Shown piece after piece: positions 23,774 through 62,351 of a DNA stretch of 64,000 nucleotides. Positions within the stretch are counted from its first letter, which is position 1. Each line of letters opens with the position of its first letter. Origin of the DNA: an uncultured Propionimicrobium sp. GTDB taxonomy: Bacteria > Actinomycetota > Actinomycetes > Propionibacteriales > Propionibacteriaceae. The position numbers were made by a program, and so were the translations under genes. The stretch lies in NCBI GenBank assembly GCA_963511305.1, contig CAUPIJ010000002.1, positions 40,034-104,033 of the forward strand, written 5' to 3'. The notes under the pieces are model-generated. The model was not told the DNA's origin, made no database searches, and was given only the letters and a program-made list of their open reading frames with translations.

Positions 23774-23786
23774 GTCGAGCTGCATA

Positions 23787-23829
23787 GGCCCGGGACGTCG
23801 CATGGCACCCGGGCCTTGTACATTTTTTC
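23787..23829 (+). terminator. Rho-independent terminator after rplQ
   Basis: Stem ggcccggg / cccgggcc followed by ttgtacatttttt. Confidence 0.6.
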
Positions 23830-23839
23830 AGGAGCGTCG

Positions 23840-25405: not shown

Positions 25406-25426
25406 CGATGAAGATAGGTGTAAATT

Positions 25427-27227: not shown

Positions 27228-27368
27228 TAGTTAGGTTGTTCTTTTCTGGTCGATGTTAAACGAAGTTTTAGGTAGCCTTTATTCAGTTATCTGAGCAACC
27301 GAATTATTACGATCAAAATCACCGATACGTGACAGTGTCGAAAATGTGAGTCGAGCAATTAACTATTG

Positions 27369-27393
27369 GTAGGCAATGAAAGACAGTGCCTAC
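27369..27393. promoter_or_regulatory. Inverted repeat upstream of the bacteriocin gene (candidate operator)
   Basis: gtaggca-N11-tgcctac lies 64-88 nt upstream of ATG 27457, followed by tacgtaaac (27391-27399). The same 9-mer also occurs at 25185-25193, upstream of the small peptide gene. Confidence 0.3.
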
Positions 27394-27456
27394 GTAAACA
27401 TGTTGCGTTACCTTTTTGAGCGCTGGTCAAAGAAGATCGGCAAAGGAGGAGAAACG

Positions 27457-27753
27457 ATGAACAAAAAACTGAAGAAAGCTGTGGCGGTCGGAGTAATGTC
27501 GGTTTCACTGTTGGGAGTTGGAACAGCCGTCGCACATGCAGACACTGTTTACTACAAGGGAAGTGCGGTTTCTTGGGATCACGGACGATGGATGGCTGCC
27601 TGGAGCTATTCGAATGTTCAGTCAAGTAGCTATGAACATGTATCGACCGCAAACCAGACGTCTTCTGGCTGGCAGCAGCCAGGAGTAATGGCTAAAGCAA
27701 AGCAGTGGGTTGGAACAGGTCAAGCAACTGCCTACTGGAACTGCAGGGGCTAG
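27457..27753 (+). CDS. Lactococcin 972 family bacteriocin precursor (candidate)
   Basis: ATG at 27457 with AAGGAGGA upstream; 98 aa. Sec signal MNKKLKKAVAVGVMSVSLLGVGTAVAHA/DT. The mature part shows W.HG...SYSN....H.ST.......G.MAKA......A.YWN, which parallels Lcn972 (W.HG..SAYSNY..H.SATV...AGVWAKA...FYYN) as recalled from memory. The downstream gene pair is the one typical of this family. Confidence 0.68.
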   Translation: MNKKLKKAVAVGVMSVSLLGVGTAVAHADTVYYKGSAVSWDHGRWMAAWSYSNVQSSSYEHVSTANQTSSGWQQPGVMAKAKQWVGTGQATAYWNCRG

Positions 27754-27786
27754 GAAATAGAAAATTCATCGTCGCGGTGGTGCGAA

Positions 27787-29982
27787 ATGCAAAAAATTAT
27801 CAACGTAGCCGTTATTGTGTTATTTGCGTTAATGGCGGTTGCGTTCACTCTGGAATCTATAGTTAATGTGGGAATTGATTTTGGTCAGAAGGTTAGGGAG
27901 TATCCCGATTCTGGTTTTGAATTTTCGCTAATTAAGGCTCCCGAAGAATCTGCTAACAAAGTTCAAGAGTTTCTTTGGAAATGCGCAGATGATAATGATG
28001 CAATGATCATCCGCCGCGACGATGTTTTATCTAAAATAGATGGCAGTGTGGATGCCTATCATTTAGGCTTCTACGGAAATGTGAGCAAAAACTCAGATGC
28101 TCTAGAGCTTAAAATGGGTTCTGCCGATCTACTGAATGAAGTTAATCTTTCAAAGCTGCTCACCTCTGGGCCAGATAGCACGCTTGGCCTAGACAAGATC
28201 CGCCCCGATATGGTTGGCGGGATTCCATCCATTAAGTTCTCGCCAAGGCTGGTTGCCGTTCAACTACAAAAGTTGATTGAAGATTCGGGAACGATCCGTG
28301 GGAAGTACTCAGTTGTTGGATTGTCGCAGCAGCAATTTGATTCCCTGGTTGGTGAGCTGAGCAGCGCAACGGGCCTTACAACAGATGAAATACTTCATCC
28401 ATTAGCTGGGAGCGCAACATCTGAAAGCTTTTTTAACAGCATCATGCTTGCTGTAGGGATTATTTGTTTTGTTCTGGTTGGCCTAGTGACTCTGATCTGG
28501 GCGTTACTACAAGTCAAGCCTTTTGGAGTGCATCTGATTCTAGGTTGGTCAAAGGCTGGTTACCTGCTAAAAAGCTACGCGATATTTCTGGCGGGCATAG
28601 CATGCTTGGCTATCGTGCCGGTGATTCTATGTCTGCATTGTTTCATCGATTTTCCATTGCAGTTCGTGCTGCTTTCGGTGGTGCCGGCGCAGATCCTGAA
28701 ATTCTTTGTTATCGCTGTTTTGGCATTGCTGCCAAGCGTCCTTGCTGTGCTGCTCGTGCGTCCGGTAGCGGCTATCCGTGGCCAGATATCCCATCGAAGC
28801 CTCTTGGTGCTCGTGGTCGGTTTATTCTTGTTTTCCTCGGTGGGCACAGTGGCTTCACTGAGAATGATCGATGGCCCGCTTAGGGAAGTTCGGAATCTGT
28901 CGGAAGTCCAAGCGAAGTGGCAAGACTACGGTGATTATCAAATACTTTATAAAGACTCTGTTGGAGACAATCCCAGTAGTTTCGCACAGCAAAGCGATGA
29001 GCATCTGAAAGAGTTGTATAGCTGGTATTCTGCTATCCAGGATTTACCTGGCGTCAGTCTCGTGCATACGGCCTACTATGGCAGCGACTTATTTGATATC
29101 TGGAAGGGTAGCTTCAACACGGTTCCCATAAAGCCGTTCTGGTACATGACTGCCTCTCCTTCGTATCTGCAAGAGGTTGGCTTTGATGTCACCACTGAAG
29201 ATTCGGCATCCGCGAAAGACGGCGTGCGTGTCTACTATCTTCCTGACACCTATTCAGAGGATGAACGTCAGGCATTGGAGGGCTGGCTGAGCGAAGACGC
29301 TCTGAAAGATCGAGGCGAATCAATCGTCACGCCGTTTATGCAAGACCAACAGATTGAATTCCGTTATTACACGCCGAAAGATAATCTCTTCATGTGGAAT
29401 AGCGAATTGTCTGAGTCTTTCGAAGCTCCAGACCCGGTTGTACTGCTTACCACGGCAGAAAACATGACCCCGTTTGAATCCGAAAGCCTAAACGCCATCG
29501 GGCTTTCTCAAAGCTATCTGAAGCTAACTGGCGAAGCCGTCGCAAGCTACGCTAACCAAGATTATCTTGCGCAATACAGCCTGGATGACAACCAGCTTGA
29601 GTTCAGGCCTGCGAACGATTTCATTGCGGGTTTGCAAAAGAATATGACAGAGTTTATCCAGCTCTTTGGGGGAGTGGCGTTGTTCATCATCATCCTGGAT
29701 CTAGGTCTACTAGCGGCTGTGATTACCTTGTACGGCAAGATTAATCTTGAAACAGTGGCAGTTAAGAGGTTGCTAGGTTTCCCGTTGATGAATATCTTTT
29801 GGATGCCGTTCATCCTCGTGATATCAGTCGGCTTAATTAGCGTGGTTACCTCCGCGCTATTGGGGTCAGCTATCGGTGTGCGAATAGTCTTCGCGCTCTT
29901 TGTTGCGCAACTGCTCCTGATGTTCTTCCAGGCAAATGCAATGGCTACCAAACAAATCGTCTCCGTTGTAAAAGATCGTTAG
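27787..29982 (+). CDS. Bacteriocin-associated integral membrane protein (DUF1430 / bact_immun_7tm-like), putative permease or immunity component
   Basis: 731 aa. Has an N-terminal TM, a large extracytoplasmic segment, a central TM cluster (about aa 215-350), a second large loop and a C-terminal TM cluster. It sits between an Lcn972-like gene and an ABC ATPase, as in lactococcin 972 loci. Confidence 0.68.
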   Translation: MQKIINVAVIVLFALMAVAFTLESIVNVGIDFGQKVREYPDSGFEFSLIKAPEESANKVQEFLWKCADDNDAMIIRRDDVLSKIDGSVDAYHLGFYGNVSKNSDALELKMGSADLLNEVNLSKLLTSGPDSTLGLDKIRPDMVGGIPSIKFSPRLVAVQLQKLIEDSGTIRGKYSVVGLSQQQFDSLVGELSSATGLTTDEILHPLAGSATSESFFNSIMLAVGIICFVLVGLVTLIWALLQVKPFGVHLILGWSKAGYLLKSYAIFLAGIACLAIVPVILCLHCFIDFPLQFVLLSVVPAQILKFFVIAVLALLPSVLAVLLVRPVAAIRGQISHRSLLVLVVGLFLFSSVGTVASLRMIDGPLREVRNLSEVQAKWQDYGDYQILYKDSVGDNPSSFAQQSDEHLKELYSWYSAIQDLPGVSLVHTAYYGSDLFDIWKGSFNTVPIKPFWYMTASPSYLQEVGFDVTTEDSASAKDGVRVYYLPDTYSEDERQALEGWLSEDALKDRGESIVTPFMQDQQIEFRYYTPKDNLFMWNSELSESFEAPDPVVLLTTAENMTPFESESLNAIGLSQSYLKLTGEAVASYANQDYLAQYSLDDNQLEFRPANDFIAGLQKNMTEFIQLFGGVALFIIILDLGLLAAVITLYGKINLETVAVKRLLGFPLMNIFWMPFILVISVGLISVVTSALLGSAIGVRIVFALFVAQLLLMFFQANAMATKQIVSVVKDR

Positions 29983-29996
29983 TGATTGGATCAATC

Positions 29997-30653
29997 ATGT
30001 CTGCCTTATTGAAACTAAACCAAGTAACAAAAACATATGGCTCCAGAACAATTCTGGATCGAATTGATCTGACACTAGACTATGGCGAGAGCCTCGCTAT
30101 TACGGGGCCTTCGGGCTGCGGAAAAAGCACCCTGCTAAACATCGTCGGCCTGCTTGAGAGCCCCTCAAGTGGGAAGATTCAGATAGAGAAGCATCCATAC
30201 CCGAGCGTGAACTCGGCCAAAGCCTCGGCGATTCGTCGGGAACTGATCTCGTACCTATTTCAGTCCTACGCCCTGATTCAAAGCAAGAGCGCGCTAGAGA
30301 ACGTCATGCTAGGCATGAAATACGTCGACGGTAGTACAAAGCAGAAAAAGGCGAAAGCCCTGCAGATGCTTTCTCGACTGGGGCTAGGCCACGTGGCAAA
30401 CGACAAAGTAGTCACGCTTTCCGGTGGCGAGCAGCAGCGCGTTGCGTTAGCAAGATGCGTTCTGAAGCCTGGCAAGCTGATCCTTGCCGACGAGCCAACC
30501 GGCGCCTTGGACCCGCATCTAGCCAATGTGGTGCTGAAGGAAATCCTGCAGCTTCAGCACGAATTCGGTAAATCGCTGATAGTGGTGACGCACGATCTTA
30601 AAGTCGCAGCAGCCTGCGACAGGCAACTGCAACTGGCCGTGCACCAGCGCTAA
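29997..30653 (+). CDS. ABC transporter ATP-binding protein (antimicrobial-peptide / MacB-LolD type)
   Basis: Walker A GPSGCGKST, signature LSGGEQQRVALARC and Walker B LILADEPTGALD. An alternative GTG start at 29982 overlaps the upstream stop codon. Confidence 0.9.
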   Translation: MSALLKLNQVTKTYGSRTILDRIDLTLDYGESLAITGPSGCGKSTLLNIVGLLESPSSGKIQIEKHPYPSVNSAKASAIRRELISYLFQSYALIQSKSALENVMLGMKYVDGSTKQKKAKALQMLSRLGLGHVANDKVVTLSGGEQQRVALARCVLKPGKLILADEPTGALDPHLANVVLKEILQLQHEFGKSLIVVTHDLKVAAACDRQLQLAVHQR

Positions 30654-30683
30654 AGGTATCACTCTAAGACTGAACCCACTCAA

Positions 30684-30836
30684 GTGGCAGTCGCATGCTA
30701 TACCAGCCCCCAAGACCAAGCAAAAGCAGGGCATCCGTCGGAACTACCCGGATTTCCGTGGTGGGCCGTGATCTTCGGGACGGCCACCGTGACGGCCGTT
30801 GCCGTCTTCTGGCGGTTCGGCTTCGTAAACACCTAA
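30684..30836 (+). pseudogene. GC3-rich coding-like patch: small TM peptide ORF or 3' remnant of a host gene
   Basis: My own translation of the frame open from 30654 gives ...PGFPWWAVIFGTATVTAVAVFWRFGFVNT*. Third codon positions are strongly G/C, unlike the island. There is no SD before the only in-frame GTG (30684). Confidence 0.25.
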
Positions 30837-31038
30837 CAAAGGGTAGCCAAATGTTATTTATAAAATAATGCATTAAATAACGACAGCATTATTGAGACCT
30901 CTTTAATCTTTTTGTTTGGTGGGCCTAACCTTTCTTCTTATTTCGCTAGCCTTATCCTTGCCTGAGAATCGTTGCCGAACTAAATGCCGATAACTAAGTT
31001 GGTTATTGCCAGGTCAATTTCTAGTGGAAGGCAAAATC

Positions 31039-31320
31039 ATGGCAACTCTTACTTCAATCAAATCTTGCAGCGTTTCTACCTGCGCTTTCAACAACGGCGG
31101 CTGCACCGCAGCCGCTATCACCATGGGTGGTGCTCAGGGCGCTGCCAAGTGCGGCACCTTCATCGCTCTTGACGCCCGCGGCGGGCTTGGCACTGCTGAT
31201 GTCCACGTCGGCGCTTGCCACCGCCTGGAGTGCGTCCACAACAACGACCTGATGTGCAGCCTAGGTCAGATCGACATCGCTGGTGATAACGCTCAGTGCG
31301 GCCAGTACGAGACTCGCTAA
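31039..31320 (+). CDS. DUF1540 domain-containing Cys-rich protein (two repeats)
   Basis: ATG at 31039; 93 aa. Has two copies of the C-x-V-x2-C-x-(F/H)-N-x4-C-x-A/L-x2-I pattern characteristic of DUF1540. Confidence 0.72.
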   Translation: MATLTSIKSCSVSTCAFNNGGCTAAAITMGGAQGAAKCGTFIALDARGGLGTADVHVGACHRLECVHNNDLMCSLGQIDIAGDNAQCGQYETR

Positions 31321-31370
31321 GACCACAAGTGGTCCGTCGCCAATAGACGAAAAACCACTAGGAAACCAAG

Positions 31371-31403
31371 ATTGCCTGCCGGTTTCGGCAGGCAATCTTT
31401 TTC
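31371..31403 (+). terminator. Rho-independent terminator after the DUF1540 gene
   Basis: Stem attgcctgcc / ggcaggcaat with loop ggtttc, followed by ctttttc. Confidence 0.65.
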
Positions 31404-31406
31404 TAT

Positions 31407-32210
31407 TTAAATCCCTTTTGCAAAGCAGATCTTCTCGAACTCGTCCTCGAATTCTTTGATGCTGCTCACTGGGTTCTCGAACGCGGCAAAAACCGTGGTT
31501 ATCTCGTCATCGCGAATGTGGGTTAGCGTGACGCCGAGCCTGTCTATGTCGGCACATACCACCTTGTTTGCTATGTGCCCGCAGATTAGGGATTGGGGGC
31601 AGCGGCCGCATATTTTTCCTGGCAGCTCGCCGTTCTCGACCGCCTGGCAGACGTTTAACAGTCGGTCGTTGCAGACAGTAAGCAGCTGGCTGCAGTCTAT
31701 TTCCTCCGACTGGCTGGGGAAGCTGCCTGGCGAGAAGCGCAGCGAGCGTGGGCAGATCTTCGAGACCCCGGACGGATCATGCAGCATGAGCTTCTGGATG
31801 TCGACGGCACCGATCCTGATGTTCGCGCCGTGCGCCGCCTGACGGATGTTCTCGGGCGCCTCGCCCGTGGCCAGCAACTGTCTCGAATCGGCCAGGCTGA
31901 GCCACTCGACCTCGCCGAAGATGTGGGCAGAAGCGGTGACCAGCTTCACCGCCGGGCTCATCGCCTCTCGAAGGATTTCGACCTGGATTGGGGTGATGGT
32001 GGGGGTGAGCAGGGCAGGGTCATCGTGGTCGGAGAAATAGGCGATCATGAACACGCCGTCCGCGCTGGTGCCGTGCAGCAAGCAACGAAACTCGACGCCC
32101 GGCTCGACGTCGTAGCAGAGAGCGCGGGCGCGGCCGGTGCCGTGCAGAAGCCTTGTGACTAGCGAGTTTGAGAGCACATCGAATTTTGCTTCCGGTTTTG
32201 GATCGTCCAT
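31407..32210 (-). CDS. Hypothetical protein with Cys-rich C-terminal half
   Basis: 267-aa ORF with coding-like composition. Has several Cys in C-x2-C / C-x6-C arrangements (GKICGRCPQSLICGH). I cannot assign a family with confidence. Confidence 0.5.
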   Translation of the reverse strand: MDDPKPEAKFDVLSNSLVTRLLHGTGRARALCYDVEPGVEFRCLLHGTSADGVFMIAYFSDHDDPALLTPTITPIQVEILREAMSPAVKLVTASAHIFGEVEWLSLADSRQLLATGEAPENIRQAAHGANIRIGAVDIQKLMLHDPSGVSKICPRSLRFSPGSFPSQSEEIDCSQLLTVCNDRLLNVCQAVENGELPGKICGRCPQSLICGHIANKVVCADIDRLGVTLTHIRDDEITTVFAAFENPVSSIKEFEDEFEKICFAKGI

Positions 32211-52221: not shown

Positions 52222-52256
52222 AAGGCTGGCGGCTGTATGGCCGCCAGTCTTTGCTT
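52222..52256. terminator. Hairpin between convergent glmM and coaA
   Basis: Stem (aagg)ctggcggc / gccgccag(tctt) followed by tgctt. Confidence 0.5.
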
Positions 52257-53223
52257 AGATCTTTCGGATTCGCACGTGCCGGATCGAGTGGTCGCTGGAT
52301 TTGCGCAGCACGACGGTGGCTCGCTCGCGGGTCGGGTTGATGTTGGCCCGCAGGTTCGGCCCGTTGGTGGATTCCCAGATCGAGTAGGCGGTCTCGCGCG
52401 CCTCGGAATCATCCAGTGTCGCGTACTTATGGAAGTAGCTCTGCGGGTCCGCGAAGGCGCTGGAACGCAGGGCCAGGAATCGCGATAGGTACCAGTCTCG
52501 AATGTCCGACTCGTCCGCGTCCACGTAGACCGAGAAGTCCAGGAAGTCGCTGAGGCTGAGGTGCTGCCCGTTGCGTTGGATCGTGGCCGGCTGCAGCACG
52601 TTAAGGCCCTCGACGATCAGCACGTCCGGCTGCTCGATGACGATCTCTTCGTCTTCGACGATGTCGTAGATCAGGTGCGAATACTTGGGGGCCACCACTT
52701 GTGGTTTGCCTGATTTAACAGCGATGACGAATTCGAGCATCGCCCGCTGGTCGTAGCTTTCTGGGAACCCCTTTCGTTCCAGGATTCCCCGCCTTTGCAG
52801 CTCCTCGTTCGGAAAGAGGAAACCGTCAGTGGTTACCAAGTCGACTTTCGGCGCCGAGGGTTGCCTTCGCAGCAGTTCTGCGAGCAGGCGGGCGGTTGTC
52901 GATTTGCCGACTGCGACCGAGCCTGCAACCCCGATCACAAATGGTGTTCGCGTGGGGGAGATGCCCAGGAAGTCGTTAGAGCTGGAAAACATCCTGGTGG
53001 TGTTCTTGCGGTAGAGCTCAACGAGTTGAGTCAGCGGAAGGTAGACCTCTTCGACGTCTTGCAGGCTTGTCGGGTCTTGAAGGCCGCGCAGGCGCTCAAG
53101 AGTTTCGCCGTCAAGAGTTTCGTGAGAGGCGTGAGCCAACTGGGCCCAACTTTCCCTGGGAAGGATGAGCCAGGGTCGATTAGGCGACTGTCGTACTGGT
53201 ATCGTCATGTGGCTATTCGTCAT
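52255..53223 (-). CDS. coaA: Type I pantothenate kinase
   Basis: 322 aa: ...PFVIGVAGSVAVGKSTTARLL...TTDGFLFPN..L......RKGFPESYD. Confidence 0.93.
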   Translation of the reverse strand: MTNSHMTIPVRQSPNRPWLILPRESWAQLAHASHETLDGETLERLRGLQDPTSLQDVEEVYLPLTQLVELYRKNTTRMFSSSNDFLGISPTRTPFVIGVAGSVAVGKSTTARLLAELLRRQPSAPKVDLVTTDGFLFPNEELQRRGILERKGFPESYDQRAMLEFVIAVKSGKPQVVAPKYSHLIYDIVEDEEIVIEQPDVLIVEGLNVLQPATIQRNGQHLSLSDFLDFSVYVDADESDIRDWYLSRFLALRSSAFADPQSYFHKYATLDDSEARETAYSIWESTNGPNLRANINPTRERATVVLRKSSDHSIRHVRIRKI

Positions 53224-53503
53224 TAGATCTTAGAAGGGCAAACCGCTACTAGAATACGTTACAGCTGAATTCAGCTATTGTCATTCCAGATCTTAAGCCT
53301 TTGGTTAAAGTACGATTCTAGGAAGAAACTTTTAGGGGGGCAGTTCACAACCGTCAAGCTAGATTCATGTTGGCGACTGAAAAGCGAGAACAATTTGTAA
53401 CTAGCAAATGTGCGGTTCTGGGTTCCAGATCGTTAGTTGGCTAGTCGGTGAGAAACGCCGGCTATCATTGGTCGCTGTAACAATATGTGGAAAGTAGTTC
53501 AAG

Positions 53504-54475
53504 GTGTCCTTAGAGAAGACAGAAAATGGCGAGCAAGTAAGGCTCATGGCACGCGTTGCGCGCTTACACTATGAGCAAGGTATAAAACAGAAGGCCATCG
53601 CCGAGAAATTGAACCTTTCTGCCTCAAAAGTCTCTCGTTTATTGCGTAAGGCTAATGAAACAGGAATCGTCAGAACGGTTGTCCAACTTCCAGACGGTGT
53701 TCACGCTGATATAGAAGAAAAAATCGAAGCTAAGTATGGCCTGGATGAGGTTGTCATTGCTGACATCCGAGGTACTCATAAGGAAGTATTGAAGGCTTTA
53801 AGTTCCGCTGGCGCTGAGTACCTGAAGACAACACTTAACTCTTCTATGGTAATGGGCATATCTGCATGGAGCGAAACCCTAATGGCTGTGGCTAACCGTC
53901 TTGCGGAAAACGACGGCATATGTCTTAAAGATGTTGTTCAGCTTGATGGTGGCGCAGGCCATGCTGATGCACAGCTTAGGGCTGCAAGAATGCTGGATAA
54001 ATTGGCGAGAGTTAGCAACGCTAAACCGATTGTTTTACCTGTACCCGGTGTAGCTCCAACCGTTAGAGCCTATGAAACCTACATTCATGATCCAGGGGTG
54101 GTAGCCGTTTCATCTGTCTGGAACAGCGTTGATGTTGCTCTGGTAGGTATCGGGTCGCTTTCCCCTTCTCCTGTGCTTAGGCAAAGTGGGAATTACGCTA
54201 GTCAAGACGTAATAAATCAACTAATTTCGTTTGGCGCAGTAGGCGATGTCTGTCTACGTTTTTTTGATCGAGACGGGCGTGCTGTGGAGACCGAATTTGA
54301 TAGCAGGGTTATAGGGGTAACCTTAAATAGGCTCAAGAAAGTTAGACGCAGAATCGCAATTGCGGGTGGCAGTGAGAAGATAGGTGCTATCCAGGCTGCT
54401 TTGCGTGGTTCAATCGTGAACACAATAGTGACAGACCTGGGAGTTGCAGAGTCTCTGCTTGGCCTGCGAGCTTAG
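53504..54475 (+). CDS. SorC/DeoR-type sugar-binding transcriptional regulator
   Basis: 323 aa: ...MARVARLHYEQGIKQKAIAEKLNLSASKVSRLLRKA (HTH), then a SorC-like sugar-binding domain ...ALVGIGS. The GTG start is uncertain. Confidence 0.83.
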   Translation: MSLEKTENGEQVRLMARVARLHYEQGIKQKAIAEKLNLSASKVSRLLRKANETGIVRTVVQLPDGVHADIEEKIEAKYGLDEVVIADIRGTHKEVLKALSSAGAEYLKTTLNSSMVMGISAWSETLMAVANRLAENDGICLKDVVQLDGGAGHADAQLRAARMLDKLARVSNAKPIVLPVPGVAPTVRAYETYIHDPGVVAVSSVWNSVDVALVGIGSLSPSPVLRQSGNYASQDVINQLISFGAVGDVCLRFFDRDGRAVETEFDSRVIGVTLNRLKKVRRRIAIAGGSEKIGAIQAALRGSIVNTIVTDLGVAESLLGLRA

Positions 54476-54633
54476 CGACCTCGTCGCGGTGCGATAATAT
54501 TCTCGAACTGGTTTCTCAGGAACATCTGTGTGCTAGTCTTTCTGTGAAAGAAAACGCAGGGCTGAAATTTATTTCATTGGTGATTTAGGTTTTGTGCTTA
54601 TGCGTGACAGTGTCTGAAGAAGTGATTTTAAAG

Positions 54634-54891
54634 ATGAAACGTGAAGCTATCGTTGCAGCTCCGGAGGGTCTTCATGCGAGGCCGGCTTCGGAGTTTGTTA
54701 GAGCCGTCAAAAGTTCTGGAAAAAATGTTCAGGTTTCTGCGAATGGCCGGGGGCCTGTCTCGGCTGCCTCAATACTTTCTGTTTTAGGCTTGGGGGTTCA
54801 GCAAGGGCAAAAAGTTGTCTTGGAAACCGTGTGTGATGATGCAGCTGCTGTGTTGGACAAGCTTGTGAAACTTCTAGAGGAAGCGTCATGA
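54634..54891 (+). CDS. ptsH: Phosphocarrier protein HPr
   Basis: ATG at 54634; 85 aa, with the active-site His in EGLHARPAS. Confidence 0.9.
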   Translation: MKREAIVAAPEGLHARPASEFVRAVKSSGKNVQVSANGRGPVSAASILSVLGLGVQQGQKVVLETVCDDAAAVLDKLVKLLEEAS

Positions 54892-56594
54892 GTGGTGATG
54901 CGTTGCGCGGTATAGGAGTTGGTGTCGCAAGTATTGTCGGGCAGGTTAGGAGGTTCGATAGCCAAATACTTGTACCTGATGATGAAAAGGTGCCGTGTGG
55001 CTCTGCTGAGGTCGAGAAAGCTTTAGAGTTTGTCAGGTTTTGCCTTGAGAGAGTTCGTGAAGAGCTAGAGGCCCAAGCGAATGCACAGGGTGATCAGGTT
55101 GTGGCTGATGTTGTCATAGCTAATGCGGAAATAGTGGCTGATCCTGAGTTGGCGAAACGTATTGAAAATTTAGTTCGTGAGGGAAATGGCCCTGCAGGCG
55201 CTGTCAATAAAGCTTTTGCTGAGTGTGAAGAGCTTTTCGACAGCTTAGGGGGGTACATGGCTGAACGTAAATCTGATCTACGTTCTTTACGCGACCGCGT
55301 GCTCGCTAAAATTTTGGGTAAGCCTGACCCGGTAGTTGAGCTTGAGGAGCCAAGAATCCTTGTAGCAAAAGACCTCACGCCCGCAGACACTGTCTCTTTA
55401 GATTTGTCAAATGTTTTGGCTGTCGTGACTCAGGAAGGCGGTTCTACGTCTCACACAGCAATAATTGCTCGGCAAAATGGAATTCCTTGCGTGGTTGGTG
55501 TTGCTTCTGCCGATAAGTTAACCGATGGCGCCTTAGTTGCGGTAGAAAGTGCTAAAGGACTAGTTACGTTGGCTCCGGACGAAAAGCTTGTTGAGCATAT
55601 CCGACGTGAAAAACAGTTCAGGCGATCGCTCGCATCGGATAGAAGACTTGGTGCTACGAAAGATGGTAGGCGCGTGGAGCTGCTTGCCAATATTGGTGGT
55701 AAAAAAGACGCCAATCGAGCTGTGGAGCTTGGAGCTGAAGGTGTTGGCTTATTTAGAACAGAATTCTTGTTCTTGGGTGCTGATTTAGAGCCAACTGTTT
55801 CAGAACAAGAGGCGGCTTATTCTGCTGTTTTTGAAAGATTTAGAGGCAAAAAAGTCGTTTTGAGGACATTAGATGCGGGCTCTGATAAACCGCTGTCGTT
55901 TGCTAACAATACTGACGAACCCAATCCTGCTTTAGGTGTTCGTGGGTACAGATTAGCCAAAAGTAATCAAGAATTGTTGCTTAATCAATTAGTGGCGGTA
56001 AATCAGGCAGCAGCTAGGAATCCTGAAACAGATGTTTGGGTTATGGCGCCGATGGTCTCAACTGAAAAAGAATCTGCTGATTTCGCTCGCTTGGTTAGAA
56101 ACCTAGAAAGTGACATAAAAGTGGGTGTCATGGTGGAGGTGCCTTCGGCGGCGCTTTGTGCATATAGCATTCTTTCTACAGTTGATTTCGTTTCTCTAGG
56201 GACGAATGATCTTGCCCAGTATGTTATGGCGAGTGATCGTCAGTTGGCCTCACTCGCCGACCTGCTGAGTCCATGGCAGCCGGCGGTGTTGCAGTTAGTT
56301 TCAAAGACCGTTTTAGCGGCAAAAGCTGCTGGCAAGCCCGTTGGAGTCTGCGGTGAGGCGGCTTCCGATCCCTTGCTTGCACTTTTCCTGGTGGGTCTTG
56401 GTGCTTCCAGCTTGTCTATGTCGGCGGCTTCAATCGCAGAAGTGCGCTTTGCTCTTCGAAACATGACTAAAAGTGAGTGCGCTGACTTGGCCCATTCGGT
56501 GCTCTTGGCTGGTAATGCAAATGAAGCTAGGGCTTGTGCATTGGAGATGACGAGCCCGGAAGCCTTGAAAGTGTTGGGTCTGAACTCAAAGTAG
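54888..56594 (+). CDS. ptsI: Phosphoenolpyruvate-protein phosphotransferase (PTS Enzyme I)
   Basis: 568 aa: GGSTSHTAIIARQNGIPCVVG, GLFRTEFLF, SLGTNDLAQY. Overlaps the HPr stop by 4 nt. Confidence 0.93.
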   Translation: MSGDALRGIGVGVASIVGQVRRFDSQILVPDDEKVPCGSAEVEKALEFVRFCLERVREELEAQANAQGDQVVADVVIANAEIVADPELAKRIENLVREGNGPAGAVNKAFAECEELFDSLGGYMAERKSDLRSLRDRVLAKILGKPDPVVELEEPRILVAKDLTPADTVSLDLSNVLAVVTQEGGSTSHTAIIARQNGIPCVVGVASADKLTDGALVAVESAKGLVTLAPDEKLVEHIRREKQFRRSLASDRRLGATKDGRRVELLANIGGKKDANRAVELGAEGVGLFRTEFLFLGADLEPTVSEQEAAYSAVFERFRGKKVVLRTLDAGSDKPLSFANNTDEPNPALGVRGYRLAKSNQELLLNQLVAVNQAAARNPETDVWVMAPMVSTEKESADFARLVRNLESDIKVGVMVEVPSAALCAYSILSTVDFVSLGTNDLAQYVMASDRQLASLADLLSPWQPAVLQLVSKTVLAAKAAGKPVGVCGEAASDPLLALFLVGLGASSLSMSAASIAEVRFALRNMTKSECADLAHSVLLAGNANEARACALEMTSPEALKVLGLNSK

Positions 56595-56678
56595 GAAAAA
56601 GTTCTAGACACAGTCCTACCTCGGTGTTATCATGAAATTAATATCACAAGTGAAAGAAATTTCACTCAAAGGAGAGAG

Positions 56679-57548
56679 ATGTTAGTAAATTTCAATGAAA
56701 TGCTTGCTGATGCGCAAGCAAAGCACTACGGAATTGGTTGTATTAATACTCCCAATAGAACATACTTGCGAGCTTTGATTGATGCTGCAGAGGAGGTGAA
56801 CATTCCTCTAATTATTGACCACGCAGAGGTTCATGATCCTCTTATTCCTTTGGAAGATGTCGCAAAAGATATGGTCGAGTATGCAGAGAAGGCTAAAGTC
56901 CCCGTAGCGGTACATGTGGACCATGGTGAAAGCATGGGATTCATCATGCGTGGTGTAAATAATGGCTTTACTTCGGTGATGTACGACTGCTCGAAGTTGC
57001 CGTTTGAAGAGAATGTCAGGCGAGTAAAAGAGTTCGTCGAGATGGTTCGTCCTGCAGGAATTAGTGTAGAAGCAGAGCTCGGCGAGATGCCGTCAACTCT
57101 TGAAGATACACATGGAGGAGCAAACGACACTAAGCCTGGTTTCACTGACCCGCAGAAAGCAGCGGAATTTATCGAACGCACTGGAGTTGATGCGTTGGCG
57201 GTGACTTTTGGTACTTCGCACGGTATTTACACCGAGACGCCGAAGCTTGACTTCGAGCATTTGAAAGAGCTCAGGAAAGCTACAGGGGATACGCCCTTAG
57301 TTATGCATGGAAGTTCTGGTGTCCCGTTGCCTGACATTCAAAAAGCAATTCAAATGGGTATTAGTAAAGTAAATTATTACTCTTATCTCGCAGTTGATTC
57401 ATCTGAGTTCGCGTTGCAAACACTAAGCGACGATAAGTCTACGGGTCACGCTACCTTTTATCATGAATTAGTAGAAAAAGTTTATGAACATACTAAGGAA
57501 GAGGCAAAGAAGCTATATCGAATTTTCTTGAATGGAAATGAACTTTAG
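56679..57548 (+). CDS. Class II ketose-bisphosphate aldolase family protein (FBA/GatY/KbaY/IolJ family)
   Basis: 289 aa: ...YGIGCINT.......A.I.AAEE...PLIID.........VAVHVDHGES...ELG......FGTSHG.Y....L......PLVMHGSSG. Confidence 0.87.
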   Translation: MLVNFNEMLADAQAKHYGIGCINTPNRTYLRALIDAAEEVNIPLIIDHAEVHDPLIPLEDVAKDMVEYAEKAKVPVAVHVDHGESMGFIMRGVNNGFTSVMYDCSKLPFEENVRRVKEFVEMVRPAGISVEAELGEMPSTLEDTHGGANDTKPGFTDPQKAAEFIERTGVDALAVTFGTSHGIYTETPKLDFEHLKELRKATGDTPLVMHGSSGVPLPDIQKAIQMGISKVNYYSYLAVDSSEFALQTLSDDKSTGHATFYHELVEKVYEHTKEEAKKLYRIFLNGNEL

Positions 57549-57549
57549 T

Positions 57550-58011
57550 ATGTCGGAGTTGGATAATCTTTTAAATCCCAACTTGGTGAAGTTGAACATA
57601 GACCCGCCTAAAAATTTTAATTCCCTTTTGTGTTTGATAGCCGATTGCTTGGCTTCTGAGGGCATGTTGGTTGATAGGAGCAAATATATCGCTGATGTGT
57701 TGGTCCGTGAGGCAGAAGGGTCTACTTATATGGGAAGAGGAATTGGTATTCCTCATGCCAAAACTTCGGGAGTAAAGCAGGCTGCTATCTGCATGCTACG
57801 TTTTAAGATCCCGATGGTCTATGAATCGAACGGTGATAGTGGGCCTGTGGATAAGATTTTTGCTATTAGTGTGCCGGAAAATGCTGGTCGACAGCATTTA
57901 GAAATTTTGGCAAGTCTAGCAAGGCTTCTTGTAGATGATGATGTTCTATATCAGCTTTCTGATGCGAAAACTTCTGAAGAATATCTATCGATAATAAATA
58001 AACAGTTGTGA
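57550..58011 (+). CDS. PTS EIIA component (fructose/mannitol/Ntr family)
   Basis: 153 aa from ATG 57550, with an alternative start at 57532 that overlaps the aldolase 3' end. The active-site region is GIGIPHAKT. Confidence 0.83.
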   Translation: MSELDNLLNPNLVKLNIDPPKNFNSLLCLIADCLASEGMLVDRSKYIADVLVREAEGSTYMGRGIGIPHAKTSGVKQAAICMLRFKIPMVYESNGDSGPVDKIFAISVPENAGRQHLEILASLARLLVDDDVLYQLSDAKTSEEYLSIINKQL

Positions 58012-58021
58012 GGCGAAAACA

Positions 58022-58348
58022 ATGGTACGTGTAATAGGAGTGACTTCGTGCGCTACTGGTATCGCTCATTCTTATATGGCAGCTGAAGCTATAGAAAAAC
58101 TGTGTAAAAAACAGGGTATTTCTGTAAAGATTGAGATTCAAGGCGCTCTCGGAATAGAGAATGAACTTTCGAGCAGAGATATCGCGAATGCGAATTTAAT
58201 TATATTTGCTAATGATGTCGCGATAAATAGGTTCGAGAGGTTTAACGGATCTGAAGAGAAAATTGTCAACGTGTCTCCGCATTCTGTCATTCAGAAGCCT
58301 GAATGTTTAATGGATGTCATGCGTGAACGTGGCCTTTTGGAAGGGTGA
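58022..58348 (+). CDS. PTS fructose-type EIIB component
   Basis: 108 aa: VIGVTSCATGIAHSYMAAEAIEK, the fructose-family IIB Cys motif. Confidence 0.88.
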   Translation: MVRVIGVTSCATGIAHSYMAAEAIEKLCKKQGISVKIEIQGALGIENELSSRDIANANLIIFANDVAINRFERFNGSEEKIVNVSPHSVIQKPECLMDVMRERGLLEG

Positions 58349-59409
58349 AAATTATGTCTTGGCGTGATGAAGGGAAAAAGCTTACTGGAGCTTTACTGAC
58401 CGGCGTTTCCTATATGATTCCGTTTGTTGTCGCTGGCGGTATTCTAATTGCGATAGGTTTTGGATTTGGCGGCATATTTGTGGGTGACGGCTCGGGGTTC
58501 TGGACCGATGTGTTTGGTATTGGCAAAGTCGCAATGGGCCTGATGACTGCTGTGTTGGGCGGATACATTGCGTATGGAATAGCTGATAAACCTGCGCTGG
58601 CCGCAGGGTTCGTTGCAGGATCTATTGCTGCCACCCAAGGGTCTGGATTTATTGGTGCTATATTGGGTGGAATTGCTGCTGGTTATCTTTGCAAATTGCT
58701 CAAGAAAATTAAACTTCCAATCGCGCTGCGTTCACTGCTTCCAGTGTTAATTATCCCTGTGGTCTCAGTTTTTATAATTGGATTAGTGATGCAGTACGTG
58801 GTGGGCACTCCTGTTTCTTGGCTCAACCACTCGTTGCAAAATGCACTCTCGGGCATGAGCGGTGGGGCAGCAGTCTTGCTTGGTATTGTGCAGGGCGCAA
58901 TGCTTGCTTCTGACATGGGTGGTCCCATTAATAAGGCTGCATACGCTTTTGCTTTAGCAGCTACTGAAAGTGGTAACTGGGCTCCGATGGCTGCGAATTT
59001 CATTGCTTCTATGTCTCCACCGTTGGGTATTGCCTTGGCGATGATGATTATGCCTAAAAAATTCACTAAATCAGAAAGAGGATCCATGGGTGGTTTGCTC
59101 GTTGGTGGCTTCGGGATGATTACTGAATTTGCAATTCCTTTTGCTGCTAGCAAACCGTTCAGAGTTATTCCTTCACTTATGGTTGGTAGCGCAGTAGGTG
59201 CCGCATTGTCATATCTCGCTGGGCTAACTATGCAGGCTCCGCATGGCGGTTTGTTTGTGATCTTGCTATGTAACAAACCTGTGATCTTCTTGATGATACT
59301 GCTATTAGCGGGCTTGGTTACTGCGGGAATGCTTTTGCTGTTAAAGCAAAAGCCGACCGATGAAGAGTTGCAAGAAGACTCGGAACTAACGAATATTGCT
59401 GAAATGTAA
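58345..59409 (+). CDS. PTS fructose-type EIIC permease
   Basis: 354 aa, polytopic. Has the DMGGPINKAAYAFA motif typical of fructose-family IIC. Start is GTG 58345 or ATG 58354. Confidence 0.9.
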   Translation: MKIMSWRDEGKKLTGALLTGVSYMIPFVVAGGILIAIGFGFGGIFVGDGSGFWTDVFGIGKVAMGLMTAVLGGYIAYGIADKPALAAGFVAGSIAATQGSGFIGAILGGIAAGYLCKLLKKIKLPIALRSLLPVLIIPVVSVFIIGLVMQYVVGTPVSWLNHSLQNALSGMSGGAAVLLGIVQGAMLASDMGGPINKAAYAFALAATESGNWAPMAANFIASMSPPLGIALAMMIMPKKFTKSERGSMGGLLVGGFGMITEFAIPFAASKPFRVIPSLMVGSAVGAALSYLAGLTMQAPHGGLFVILLCNKPVIFLMILLLAGLVTAGMLLLLKQKPTDEELQEDSELTNIAEM

Positions 59410-59437
59410 TTTAATTAATTAAGGAAGGTGCATAGAA

Positions 59438-60358
59438 GTGCCAAAATTTGTAGATGTTCTCGAACGTTTCCCATTTGAACCTGAAGACAAGAAAATTACT
59501 TTAATTCGTAAAGCTGATTATTTGCATCACATTTATCCACCGAATAACGCTTTTACAAGCGATAATAATTATCTTATTGTCTCGACTGATACAATGTTGC
59601 TTGGGATTTATGAACTTGCCCCAGGTGCCTCTTTCGAACCAATCGACATTCACCCTGGTGATGAAATGTATTACATTCTCGAGGGTCCTGTGGTGCAAAA
59701 AAGCAATTATGGTCAATATGTTGAAATGCAAACTGGAGATGGTTTGCTGATCCCTCAAGAGACTTGGCATCAAGGAAATAATTTTTCCGATCATAAGGCT
59801 AGAATATTGTTCTTCATAGCTCCGAAAGCTTGGGGCGAAGATGTCCCACCTAAGGTTTTTCCTGTAGCGGATGACACAAAGACATTTAAAGGTCGAAAGA
59901 ATTCTGAAATTCCAGATGTTTCGGGTCGAACTGGCATTACTCGTATGCCTACAACGGATGATCTTGGCAAATGGCCGGTGGATGGCCCGACTGCTCGCCA
60001 AAAGCCGTCGAATATTTACCATATTTCTGATAAAAATAAGCTTGTGACGATTATGGGAAATGATAGCCCGACTCTCATGAAGTTTACTGTTAGTACCGAT
60101 TATGGACATATGGGTGAGATTATTATCCCTGTCGGTGGCGGAAAAGGCCCTAGATGTTCTGAACCCATGTCGCATGATGGGGATACAGCACTTTATTGTT
60201 TAACCGGTCCTATAACTATTAATTTCCCTGATAGGCTCGAATGCTTTATTGTTGAACCGGAAGAGTCAATATTTATTCCAAAGGGCGAGAAGTATCAATT
60301 AGTTAATTTTGAAGGTTATCCGGTTAAAGCTGTGTTTGCCATTGCTCCAAATTTGTAA
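59438..60358 (+). CDS. Bicupin protein of unknown function (last gene of the PTS cassette)
   Basis: 306 aa with a GTG start after AAGGAAGG. Has two cupin-like segments (...IHPGDEMYYILEGP...GDGLLIPQETWH and ...SHDGDTALYCLTGP...ESIFIPKGEKYQ). Confidence 0.68.
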   Translation: MPKFVDVLERFPFEPEDKKITLIRKADYLHHIYPPNNAFTSDNNYLIVSTDTMLLGIYELAPGASFEPIDIHPGDEMYYILEGPVVQKSNYGQYVEMQTGDGLLIPQETWHQGNNFSDHKARILFFIAPKAWGEDVPPKVFPVADDTKTFKGRKNSEIPDVSGRTGITRMPTTDDLGKWPVDGPTARQKPSNIYHISDKNKLVTIMGNDSPTLMKFTVSTDYGHMGEIIIPVGGGKGPRCSEPMSHDGDTALYCLTGPITINFPDRLECFIVEPEESIFIPKGEKYQLVNFEGYPVKAVFAIAPNL

Positions 60359-60376
60359 TCTTGTCATGGTTTGATT

Positions 60377-60434
60377 AATGTTTTTGGGGTAGTCACTTTA
60401 ATGGCTACCCCAAAAACATTTCTTTATTTATCTT
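60377..60434 (+). terminator. Rho-independent terminator at the right end of the PTS island
   Basis: Perfect 16-bp stem aatgtttttggggtag / ctaccccaaaaacatt with a 12-nt loop, followed by tctttatttatctt. Confidence 0.7.
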
Positions 60435-60509
60435 ATTTTAGTTTTCAAATAGTTATTTATTGCAACACCTATTTTGCTTTTGAGTTACTGTTGCCGATAA
60501 AATTTAACT

Positions 60510-62351
60510 ATGTGTGGAATCATCGGATACGTCGGCTCGAAGTCGGCTCAAAAAGTAGTAATCGAGGGTCTTCGTAGGCTGGAATATCGCGGATACGATT
60601 CTGCGGGAATCGCGCTGGTCGGGGCTGACGGCATGCACACTTCTAAGAAGGCCGGCAAGCTCTCCAACCTAGAAAACGAACTCGCGCTGCATGAGCTTCC
60701 CGAAGCCACCACAGGCATCGGGCACACCAGGTGGGCGACGCACGGCGGTCCCACCGACGCCAACGCTCATCCGCACGTCAGCGCCAATGGCCGCGTCGCG
60801 CTGGTACACAACGGAATCGTGGAGAACTTCGCCCAGTTGCGCGACGAGCTGATCGCGGCTGGCGTTGAATTCAGCTCCGAGACCGACACCGAGGTCGTCG
60901 CTCAGCTGCTGGGGCTGGAGGTCGAGAAGGCAGACTTGTGCGAGGCGATGCGCGCTGTGGTGGCCAGGCTGGAGGGCACTTTCACGCTGGTGGCCGTCGA
61001 TAGCACCGACCCGGATCACGTGGTCGCGGCCCGCAGGAATTCGCCGCTAGTGGTTGGCGTTGGCCAGGGCGAGAACTTCGTCGCCTCCGATGTCGCCGCC
61101 TTCATCGAGCACACCCGCGAGGCCATCGAGCTAGGCCAAGACCAGATTGTGCGGATCAGCTCTGCTGGCATCGAGGCCATCAACTTCGACGGCACCCCAG
61201 CTCAGACCCGTAGCTATCACATCGACTGGGACGCTTCGGCGGCTGAGAAGGATGGCTACGACTGGTTCATGCGTAAAGAGATTTTCGAGCAGCCGAGGGC
61301 CGTCGCCGACACTCTGCTGGGGCGCTACTCCGAAAAGGGCGAGCTAGTTCTAGATGAGATGAGCATTCGCCCGGAGGAGCTGCGCCGAATCAACAAGATC
61401 GTCATCGTTGCTTGTGGCACGGCCTACTACGCGGGCATGGTGGCCAAGTACGCCATCGAGCACTGGACCCGCGTGCCGTGCGAGGTCGAGCTGGCCAGCG
61501 AGTTCCGCTACCGCGATCCGATCGTCGACCCGATGACGCTGTGCGTGACCATTAGCCAGTCTGGTGAGACCGCCGACACCCTGATGGCCATCCGCCACGC
61601 CCGTGAGCAGCACTGCAAGGTGATCGCGATCTGCAACACCAACGGCGCCACGATCCCGCGCGAGTCCGACGCCGTGATCTACACCCACGCCGGTCCGGAG
61701 ATCGGCGTGGCATCGACGAAGGGCTTCCTGACCCAGCTCGCTGCCTGCTACCTGCTCGGCCTCTACCTGGCTCAGGTACGTGGCATGAAGTATGGCGACG
61801 AGATCAAGACGATCATGGCTGAGCTGGAGAGCACCCCGAAGTTGATACAGCGGGTGCTGGACAAGGCGGAAGAGGTCTACGACCTGGCGAAGGAGGTCGT
61901 CGGCCAGAACGACTTCATTTTCCTCGGTCGTCACGTCGGCTATCCCGTCGCCCTGGAGGGCGCGCTTAAGCTCAAGGAGATCGCCTATCAGCATGCCGAG
62001 GGCTTCGCTGCAGGCGAGCTCAAGCACGGCCCGATCGCCATCATCGAGCCGGGCATGCCGGTCTTCGTGATCGTCCCGCCCAAGGGCCGTGACCAGCTGC
62101 ACGATAAGGTCGTGTCCAATATCCAGGAGGTGAGGGCCAGGGGAGCACGCACTATAGTGTTGACAGAGGAGGGCGACGACTCGGTCGTGCCCTTCGCCGA
62201 CAAGGTGATTTGGCTGCCGCACGTTTCGACGCTGCTGCAGCCGCTGGTTTCGGTGGTTCCGTTGCAGCTCTTTGCCTGTGAGCTGGCCACGCTGCTCGGC
62301 AACGATGTCGATCAGCCGCGAAACCTGGCTAAATCAGTAACAGTGGAGTGA
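60510..62351 (+). CDS. glmS: Glutamine--fructose-6-phosphate aminotransferase
   Basis: 613 aa: MCGIIGYVG...GIGHTRWATHG...two SIS domains...KSVTVE. Confidence 0.96.
   Translation: MCGIIGYVGSKSAQKVVIEGLRRLEYRGYDSAGIALVGADGMHTSKKAGKLSNLENELALHELPEATTGIGHTRWATHGGPTDANAHPHVSANGRVALVHNGIVENFAQLRDELIAAGVEFSSETDTEVVAQLLGLEVEKADLCEAMRAVVARLEGTFTLVAVDSTDPDHVVAARRNSPLVVGVGQGENFVASDVAAFIEHTREAIELGQDQIVRISSAGIEAINFDGTPAQTRSYHIDWDASAAEKDGYDWFMRKEIFEQPRAVADTLLGRYSEKGELVLDEMSIRPEELRRINKIVIVACGTAYYAGMVAKYAIEHWTRVPCEVELASEFRYRDPIVDPMTLCVTISQSGETADTLMAIRHAREQHCKVIAICNTNGATIPRESDAVIYTHAGPEIGVASTKGFLTQLAACYLLGLYLAQVRGMKYGDEIKTIMAELESTPKLIQRVLDKAEEVYDLAKEVVGQNDFIFLGRHVGYPVALEGALKLKEIAYQHAEGFAAGELKHGPIAIIEPGMPVFVIVPPKGRDQLHDKVVSNIQEVRARGARTIVLTEEGDDSVVPFADKVIWLPHVSTLLQPLVSVVPLQLFACELATLLGNDVDQPRNLAKSVTVE

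Follow-up and report, generated by a model that had tools for sequence, protein, structure and literature searches.

We found that a block of about 7.14 kb between the divergent genes coaA and glmS, in a 64,000-nucleotide stretch of DNA from an uncultured Propionimicrobium sp., is a horizontally acquired and compositionally foreign island. The whole stretch (the window) corresponds to C2:40034-104033, a contig segment of the host genome G000 (1.94 Mb, 58.8% GC), and the island occupies 53285..60427 of the window, on the plus strand, as one clean insertion in the coaA/glmS spacer. Its eight genes encode a SorC-type regulator, the two general proteins of the phosphotransferase system (PTS), HPr and Enzyme I (EI), a class II aldolase, the fructose-family components EIIA, EIIB and EIIC, and a bicupin. 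We consider it probable that these genes were inserted as one piece and form a catabolic unit for autonomous sugar import and cleavage, and that the donor was an unsampled lineage with EI, HPr and SorC of actinobacterial type.

The island's base composition separates it from its surroundings. The GC content in 500-bp windows is 0.36-0.51 within 53.2-60.5 kb, compared to 0.57-0.70 on either side, and the edges are sharp. Genome-wide, the island falls among the lowest ~1% of 5-kb windows, with a GC content about 14 points below the host's. The GC content at third codon positions (GC3) is 0.32-0.43 in the eight island genes, compared to 0.75 in coaA, 0.81 in glmS and 0.76 in glmM, with a genome median of 0.744 and a 1st percentile of 0.42 (835 long open reading frames, ORFs). 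Because all eight genes have similarly low GC3, they probably arrived together.

The insertion is delimited by both halves of an ancestral spacer, as it is found in Propionimicrobium lymphophilum DSM 4903 (G001). Window positions 53212-53284 align to G001 spacer positions 2441-2519, and 60428-60524 align to positions 2529-2620. The left half now lies at 53224..53284 and the right half, on the glmS promoter side, at 60428..60509; they are about 60 and 80 nt long, and both promoter-bearing halves were retained. A first-pass annotation of this DNA had described an AT-rich insertion of about 7.3 kb between coaA on the minus strand and glmS on the plus strand. The contrast in GC and GC3 holds when computed, as does the location in the spacer, while the insert proper is shorter (7.14 kb) and the remainder is ancestral spacer.

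The native flanks are coaA (type I pantothenate kinase; 52255..53223, minus strand; TIGR00554, 433 bits; 90% identical to G001) and glmS (60510..62351, plus strand; TIGR01135, 822 bits; 91% identical to G001). The host is thus a Propionimicrobium species other than P. lymphophilum. These genes are divergent neighbours about 100-310 bp apart in G001, in the next relative (G022; coaA 80% and glmS 82% identical to the host's) and in at least 11 other Propionibacteriaceae genera. In G001 and G022 the spacer is empty and about 140 bp long. The comparison of spacings that the first-pass annotation had proposed thus finds the site empty in both relatives and in most of the family, with a spacer of ~100-150 bp, and the island is not a family-wide feature. 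Several other public assemblies encode almost the same island proteins (an EI variant with 567/568 matching residues; bicupin variants whose identity rounds to 100%), which makes the island a real, circulating feature and not an assembly artefact. Of the usual marks of a genomic island, we found compositional deviation and absence from close relatives at a conserved locus, and no mobility signatures.

We also considered whether the island was brought in by homologous replacement through the coding flanks. The host's coaA and glmS are 70-93% identical to those of G001 and everywhere nearer to G001 than to Propionimicrobium sp. PCR01-08-3 (G184, counted as another genus), up to the island junctions. 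Next to the island, there is no tract over which identity to G001 drops or identity to G184 rises, which rules out this mechanism for a distant donor only. A 6-nt sequence, ATCTTA, occurs near both junctions and could well be there by chance. A permissive Rfam scan of 52.2-62.4 kb matched no RNA family. A search of sequencing runs returned one dust metagenome with 7% of the island's words and listed no RNA run; it was not used as evidence.

Two other low-GC regions were seen in the host genome. One is at about 22968-31967 of the window (C2:63001-72000), with a minimum of 0.46 in 5-kb windows. The other, C22:1-14000, has the lowest GC content anywhere in the genome (0.43 in 5-kb windows); in it, a distant SorC-family homologue at C22:6886-7794 is 24% identical to the island regulator.

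Island genes and candidate operators

The gene list proposed by the first-pass annotation was matched throughout by Pfam and NCBIfam models or, for the bicupin, by an AlphaFold2 (AF2) model. All of the genes are on the plus strand. The first gene (53504..54475) encodes a SorC/DeoR(Bsu)-type regulator (PF04198, 178 bits over residues 68-319; helix-turn-helix at residues 11-58) that scores below the cut-offs of the DeoR and LsrR equivalog models. The HPr gene, ptsH (54634..54891; PF00381, 71.5 bits; TIGR01003, 73.5 vs a cut-off of 47.9), probably starts at the ATG at 54634 rather than where its ORF opens at 54592, because the His-15 motif GLHARPA falls at residue 28 of the ORF. The EI gene, ptsI (54888..56594; TIGR01417, 404.5 vs a cut-off of 341.7), contains PF05524, PF00391 and PF02896 and retains the GGSTSHTAI motif with the active-site His and the GVCGE motif with the catalytic Cys.

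The fourth gene (56679..57548) encodes a class II ketose-phosphate aldolase that is YdjI-like (PF01116, 262 bits; TIGR00167 subfamily, 221.3 vs a cut-off of 215.6). It scores below the equivalog cut-offs for fructose-bisphosphate aldolase (FBA) and tagatose-bisphosphate aldolase (TIGR01859, 231.9 vs 343; TIGR01858, 201 vs 443.6; NF005284, 232.9 vs 406), and its best solved relative is YdjI (PDB 6OFU, 7e-52). The EIIA gene (57532..58011; PF00359, 106 bits; GIPH phosphorylation motif) meets the broad PTS_EIIA_2 family of fructose/mannitol/Ntr type only, missing the fructose-specific model (TIGR00848, 79.6 vs a cut-off of 103.5). The fructose-type EIIB gene (58022..58348; TIGR00829, 92.3 vs a cut-off of 76.85) has an N-terminal SCATGIAH cysteine motif. 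The EIIC gene (58345..59409; TIGR01427, 299.9 vs a cut-off of 157.55) is the sole fructose-family EIIC match in the host genome. The phosphorelay motifs are all intact, including the HPr His, the EI His and Cys, the EIIA His and the EIIB Cys. HPr, EI and EIIA are encoded by three separate genes, and not by a multiphosphoryl transfer protein of the FruB/FryA-like type.

The last gene (59438..60358) encodes the bicupin, the hallmark protein of the cassette family. Cupin_2 matches its N-terminal barrel only, and the AF2 model predicts two tandem barrels (pLDDT 83.5, pTM 0.87). Foldseek searches with the predicted structure returned only the generic bicupins YxaG, BacB, OxdC and YlbA (probability 1.0, TM 0.5-0.6, 10-15% identity). 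Sequence searches against the PDB found only weak cupin matches (best 9e-5), and the ESM Atlas only unnamed cupin clusters. Four residues are invariant (D70, H72, E76 and H111), which suggests one metal site in the first barrel.

The block ends in an intrinsic terminator (60377..60420, plus strand) with a 6-nt loop and a T-rich tail. Its full stem has 19 pairs, including one G-U; the perfect 16-bp stem noted in the first-pass annotation corresponds to the 16 contiguous perfect pairs within it. Overlaps of 4-17 nt had likewise been claimed for all of the genes. They occur at three junctions (4, 17 and 4 nt), and the others are gaps of 10-158 nt.

We identified candidate operators by motif search and by reading the sequence. 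A pair lies upstream of ptsH (54545..54576, plus strand), consisting of TGAAAGAAAACGCA, which is weaker, and TGAAATTTATTTCA, which is exact. Upstream of the aldolase gene (56605..56664, plus strand), a promoter-like site, TAGACA-17-TATCAT, overlaps the operator-like palindromes TGAAATTAATATCA and TGAAAGAAATTTCA. The candidate palindromes are at 54563, 56633 and 56651. When up to one mismatch is allowed, the motif has eight matches in the window, compared to 1.4 expected, and three of these are within the two short promoter regions. The segments 54545-54576 and 56643-56664 form a 22-nt inverted repeat (I2) that brackets ptsHI. We considered I2 as the scar of a module insertion and came to prefer an origin as duplicated operator sites, since each arm holds a type of palindrome that is also present upstream of the aldolase gene in two sister cassettes, those of G184 and P. 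acidifaciens. From this arrangement, we infer a two-promoter unit under SorC control.

Cassette relatives and the donor

We searched 301 Propionibacteriaceae genomes for the cassette and surveyed 79 fetched loci. Bicupin orthologues were found in four of the 301 genomes, from three genera, the host included. The island bicupin is 84% identical to that of Propionimicrobium sp. PCR01-08-3, 79% identical to those of P. acidifaciens DSM 21887 and a Propionibacterium metagenome-assembled genome (MAG), and 65-68% identical to those of Cellulomonas MAGs; metagenomic relatives of 73-83% identity also exist. Identities of 51-60% extend to Bacillota (Anaerostipes, other Lachnospiraceae, Erysipelotrichaceae, Enterococcus hirae, Tetragenococcus, Propionispora, Pectinatus and Oceanobacillus) and Coriobacteriia, and 46-48% to Anaerolineae. 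Across Bacillota and Coriobacteriia the order aldolase-IIA-IIB-IIC-bicupin recurs; in Anaerolineae the order is IIA-IIB-IIC-bicupin, without the aldolase. At some loci the aldolase and bicupin genes are adjacent, with the PTS genes nearby or exchanged for ABC-transporter genes. In several Lachnospiraceae the cassette includes general PTS genes. Faecalicatena contorta ET52 (L213, 3198-10915) has a regulator with Mga-type helix-turn-helix and EIIA domains, followed by aldolase-IIA-IIB-IIC-HPr-EI-bicupin with an adjoining TIM gene, and six other Lachnospiraceae loci (L153, L155, L157, L172, L174 and L150) have EI between EIIC and bicupin.

The two closest copies, those of G184 and P. acidifaciens, share the order sorC-aldolase-IIA-IIB-IIC-bicupin with the island (aldolase 76-77%, EIIC 73-79% and bicupin 79-84% identical) and are GC-depressed in their own hosts. 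They differ from the island in having no HPr or EI genes and in their higher GC3 (0.54-0.78). EIIA is the most divergent protein compared to these sister cassettes (42-51%). The SorC regulator is common to the actinobacterial copies, with identities of 53-55% to the G184 and P. acidifaciens regulators and 47% to that of Cellulomonas, whereas Bacillota copies mostly have Mga/EIIA-type or DeoR regulators. The P. acidifaciens (Acidipropionibacterium) copy is not in the coaA/glmS spacer. It lies among catabolic genes that include RpiB, by similarity clustering, and a fused Dak gene and a xylose-isomerase-like gene, by Pfam; no mobility gene was found among the ten flanking ORFs scanned. The surroundings of this locus (L139; 3157-4191 and 12084-17009) encode a PdxA-like dehydrogenase, MFS transporters, a xylose-isomerase-like protein, a beta-hydroxyacid dehydrogenase and a fused Dak1-Dak2 kinase, a neighbourhood that we take to resemble C4 sugar or acid-sugar catabolism.

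Over all of the family, the genes most often found beside the cassette are those for Dak1 kinases (53 loci), RpiB (44), xylose-isomerase-like barrels (35), HAD phosphatases (22 and 9) and TIM (13). A set of this kind, with a xylose-isomerase-like barrel, a TIM paralogue, RpiB and a Dak-type kinase, presumably recalls the erythritol and tetrose pathways. Literature searches for a bicupin or other cupin associated with a fructose-like PTS or aldolase, and for erythrulose in connection with a PTS, RpiB and Dak, found no description of the cassette. We read the cassette as a widespread, biochemically uncharacterised operon family, mainly of Bacillota, in which a small actinobacterial sub-clade has gained a SorC-type repressor. 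The five-gene cassette is common in gut Bacillota (Anaerostipes, Lachnospiraceae and Erysipelotrichaceae).

We built a concatenated tree of aldolase, EIIC and bicupin (quick search, midpoint root). The four Propionibacteriaceae copies form one clade on a long stem (SH-aLRT 100), located beside Enterococcus and Tetragenococcus within the diversity of the Bacillota. The island copy branches first in this clade and is not the specific sister of the G184 copy. In a tree of EI, the island protein has its own long branch in an actinobacterial clade (SH-aLRT 99), the EIs of the Lachnospiraceae cassettes fall in a Bacillota clade of their own, and that of the Cellulomonas cassette belongs with Cellulomonas-type EIs. 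The island EI has no relative above about 55% identity among 5.8e9 proteins. Its nearest relatives are 51-55% identical, and all of those with names are Actinomycetota (Brooklawnia, Georgenia, Cellulomonas, Propionibacterium australiense and Streptomyces). The tree topology places the deep ancestry of the five-gene core, and only of that core, among Bacillota, and the donor of the island was probably an unsampled lineage with a GC3 near 0.4 and actinobacterial-type EI, HPr and SorC.

The first-pass annotation had instead taken a Firmicute-like codon usage as a pointer to the donor and had suggested EI and EIIC as the proteins to follow. If a Firmicute had recently passed on the entire block directly, this would account for the island's GC3, which matches that of the Lachnospiraceae copies (0.32-0.44), for the centring of the five-gene core in Bacillota and for the HPr-EI genes of some Bacillota copies. 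It does not account for the proteins themselves. All eight have actinobacterial nearest relatives, and the core proteins (aldolase, EIIC and bicupin) are 73-84% identical to Propionibacteriaceae copies, compared to 51-65% for Bacillota. The island EI is 33-37% identical to the Bacillota cassette EIs, compared to 50-55% for actinobacterial EIs, and a SorC regulator accompanies the cassette in actinobacterial copies only. We therefore consider a Firmicute donor quite unlikely. Vertical inheritance is less likely still. A single entry in the common ancestor of the Propionimicrobium-like genera, followed by precise loss in most descendants, would explain why the host and G184 have homologous cassettes in the same spacer, with protein identities (51-84%) in a range like that of the flanking genes (coaA 59-62%, glmS 77%). 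However, it would require many precise deletions to empty the site in G001, in G022 and in the congeners of G184, where coaA and glmS are directly adjacent in all 10 genomes in which both genes could be placed. The cassette thus occupies this spacer in one species from each of two genera, with the site empty in the closest relatives of both. Losses of that number and precision are implausible. A GC3 of 0.32-0.43 against a genome median of 0.74 is also incompatible with long residence, the island copy is not the sister of the G184 copy in the cassette tree, and unrelated cargo is found in the same spacer elsewhere in the family. Vertical inheritance is thus scarcely credible.

In its other hosts, the composition of the cassette approaches that of the host by degrees. 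Cassette GC3 is 0.54-0.70 in G184, where the flanks are at about 0.8, 0.67-0.78 in P. acidifaciens, where the flanks are at about 0.9, and 0.91-1.0 in Cellulomonas, which is fully host-like. This graded series fits separate acquisitions of differing age and not one old vertical inheritance.

The spacer itself appears to have been used more than once. G184 carries sorC-aldolase-IIA-IIB-IIC-bicupin between its own coaA and glmS; its junctions and those of the host are too diverged for their insertion points to be compared by direct alignment. Elsewhere in the family, the spacer holds ABC-transporter genes of about 3.7 kb (G010, L314), an alpha/beta-hydrolase insert of about 1.4 kb (G023, L315) and a methyltransferase insert of about 1.1 kb (G009, L316). 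Because unrelated cargo sits there in other genera, we interpret the divergent coaA/glmS spacer as a recurrent insertion site, or hotspot, in Propionibacteriaceae, one that takes up foreign DNA repeatedly and without recognisable recombinase signatures.

Private HPr and Enzyme I

We searched the host for other EI and HPr genes, which the first-pass annotation had proposed as a check, and found three further sets beside the island pair, four in total. The host did not, then, lack a PTS, and the island EIIC is its only fructose-family permease. One set is a fused EIIA(Glc)-HPr-EI of 847 aa followed by EIIBC (C5:33125-37467; L219 7126-11468). Another is DhaK-DhaL followed by a DhaM-type EIIA(Man)-HPr-EI fusion of at least 770 aa that includes a full-length EI and runs off the contig end (C54:788-4716; L220). 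The third consists of free-standing HPr and EI, with a GFO/IDH/MocA oxidoreductase, a GntR regulator and mannose-family EIIA-B-C-D (C15:6260-13493; L218). This C15 block has a GC3 of 0.51-0.63, compared to 0.76-0.84 for adjoining substrate-binding protein (SBP) and ABC-transporter genes, and G001 and G022 showed neither free-standing HPr/EI nor a mannose-family EIID. The block seems to be a second PTS acquisition of the self-contained kind.

The relatives of the host are sparsely equipped. In G001, whose genome is 100% complete, the single HPr-EI lies within an 801-aa DhaM-type fused frame, and searches of the genome for a PF02378-type EIIC or a mannose-family EIID found neither. P. lymphophilum DSM 4903 thus seems to lack a sugar PTS altogether. 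The only HPr-EI of G022 is a fused EIIA-HPr-EI, accompanied by its EIIBC. Within the genus Propionimicrobium, EI occurs mainly as fusions. G184 and P. acidifaciens, whose cassettes have no HPr or EI, have free-standing HPr and EI elsewhere in their genomes.

The first-pass annotation had argued that carrying HPr and EI lets the block install PTS-dependent uptake in a host regardless of what that host already has. The data partly support this proposal, that the private pair could allow the cassette to establish itself where a lineage has no general phosphorelay. In its favour are the fused HPr-EI proteins of G001 and G022, with no free-standing pair, and the presence of HPr/EI-less cassettes in genomes that have one. 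The host's three other sets and the cassettes of Lachnospiraceae and Cellulomonas, which carry a private EI though their genomes hold two to four EI matches, are counterexamples. The occurrence of the same cassette with and without private HPr and EI is a natural experiment on PTS modularity, with P. lymphophilum DSM 4903 as an island-free and essentially PTS-free comparator.

Proposed route and known systems

The gene content of the island suggests how the unit could operate. SorC would repress the ptsH and aldolase promoters through paired palindromes like TGAAA-N4-TTTCA, and a sugar phosphate would release it. Phosphate would pass from phosphoenolpyruvate (PEP) to EI, HPr, EIIA and EIIB, and then to a ketose-like sugar entering through EIIC, yielding a ketose 1-phosphate. 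The bicupin, as a metal-dependent enzyme, would isomerise or epimerise this ketose 1-phosphate or a product of it. The YdjI-like aldolase would cleave the monophosphate directly into dihydroxyacetone phosphate (DHAP) and an unphosphorylated aldehyde, with no sugar-phosphate kinase required. The aldehyde, or dihydroxyacetone, could then be taken over by the host's DhaK-DhaL-DhaM; the host does have DhaKLM. The island encodes no kinase, and no 1-phosphofructokinase in the host genome reaches the cut-off (best 72.8 bits vs 216.4). With its private HPr and EI, the unit would be autonomous in a genus where HPr-EI is otherwise present only in fused, dedicated form.

A broader hypothesis, which we put forward tentatively and regard as possible though doubtful, is that the family represents a kinase-less PTS route not described before. 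In it, a new bicupin isomerase or epimerase would act on a PTS-made 1-phosphate of a ketose or tetrulose, a YdjI-like enzyme would cleave it to DHAP and a triose, and a PTS-dependent Dak system would salvage the triose. The double draw on the phosphorelay would lead to repeated recruitment of HPr and EI, and the resulting autonomy would permit entry into lineages without a general PTS, such as Propionimicrobium, through the permissive coaA/glmS spacer.

Several results weigh against the reading of the island as an autonomous unit from an actinobacterial-type donor. As the first-pass annotation had stated for integrases, tRNAs and flanking direct repeats, our searches were negative, with no mobility or phage gene among the eight island ORFs (Pfam, PHROGs), no tRNA gene in 45-64 kb of the window and no significant direct repeat flanking the island. 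Plasmid sequences searched with the whole island (blastn, distant mode) also gave no match. Searches of the 5.8e9 proteins and of 185k species genomes turned up neither a donor nor an intermediate copy (85-98% identical). The earlier claim of a recent horizontal acquisition consequently divides in two. Horizontal transfer is well founded on composition, on the empty sites and on the occurrence in four of 301 genomes; for its recency, composition is the one line of evidence, because no such copy was found. The host already has free-standing HPr and EI on C15, and the island pair is not strictly needed now. The cassettes of Lachnospiraceae and Cellulomonas have private EIs without a shortage of others, and the comparison with the host's kin draws on three related lineages, which are few and not independent. 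Among solved structures, YdjI is barely ahead of AgaY as the relative of the aldolase (7e-52 vs 4e-47). The substrate, the bicupin reaction, the cleavage of a monophosphate and SorC binding are all inferred.

The private pair may also have a pathway-specific purpose, such as an insulated relay, extra PEP flux for uptake together with a DhaK-type kinase, or specificity between EIIA and HPr, and any of these would be compatible with an autonomous, horizontally acquired unit. A reason of this type is also likely because private HPr and EI were recruited independently in genomes that have other EIs. There were at least three such recruitments (in Lachnospiraceae cassettes, next to a Cellulomonas cassette and in the island). 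Dak1 genes neighbour the cassette in 53 loci, the duplicated candidate operator places ptsHI under the same presumed regulator, and fructose-family PTSs with their own EI and HPr have precedents (PMC5141268). Most cassette copies, including the two closest, do without a private pair, however, and in three Propionibacteriaceae lineages the pair tracks the absence of a free-standing general pair in the genus. As an explanation in its own right, we give pathway specificity appreciable weight, short of an even chance. An ordinary fructose PTS with a fructose-bisphosphate aldolase is far less likely. EIIB and EIIC do pass fructose-family NCBIfam models, and the aldolase matches FBA models at 1e-68, yet it reaches none of the FBA and tagatose-bisphosphate equivalog cut-offs and is closest to YdjI. 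The island has no fruK, and the genome no 1-phosphofructokinase above the cut-off. The bicupin is strictly kept with the aldolase, even where the PTS genes sit elsewhere, and the genes around the cassette are of the Dak, RpiB, xylose-isomerase-like and TIM types instead of fruK or fruR. There is little chance that the island is such a system.

As a gene transfer, an autonomous catabolic unit in the coaA/glmS spacer is ordinary, a sugar-utilisation operon placed in an intergenic spacer; the aldolase-EIIABC-bicupin cassette that it carries is the part for which the literature searched gave no description. Of the known systems, E. coli YdjI is comparable in being a class II metal-dependent aldolase, and it reportedly acts on ketose 1-monophosphates, an activity that would fit a kinase-less route. 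It differs in that ydjI belongs to a non-PTS cluster with kinases and dehydrogenases; moreover, it is moderately identical to the island aldolase, with AgaY/KbaY and FBA structures close behind in score. The E. coli gat and aga systems (GatY/KbaY) similarly couple PTS uptake to a class II aldolase of the same Pfam family. Those operons have galactitol- or mannose-family EIIs and a kinase or dehydrogenase step to a bisphosphate, and they are not known to include a bicupin or a private EI or HPr.

Two fructose-type systems share the island's combination of a fructose-family permease encoded with its own EI and HPr functions. In the PTS-Fru of Pseudomonas putida, FruB comprises EI-HPr-EIIA and FruA comprises EIIBC (PMC5141268, PMC3312210). 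The other is an E. coli fructose-like cluster with a 'unique enzyme I' (Reizer, Reizer and Saier 1995, cited in PMC6643234). In these systems EI, HPr and EIIA are fused, and the Pseudomonas operon includes fruK, whereas in the island they are separate genes, no kinase is present, and the unit includes an aldolase and a bicupin.

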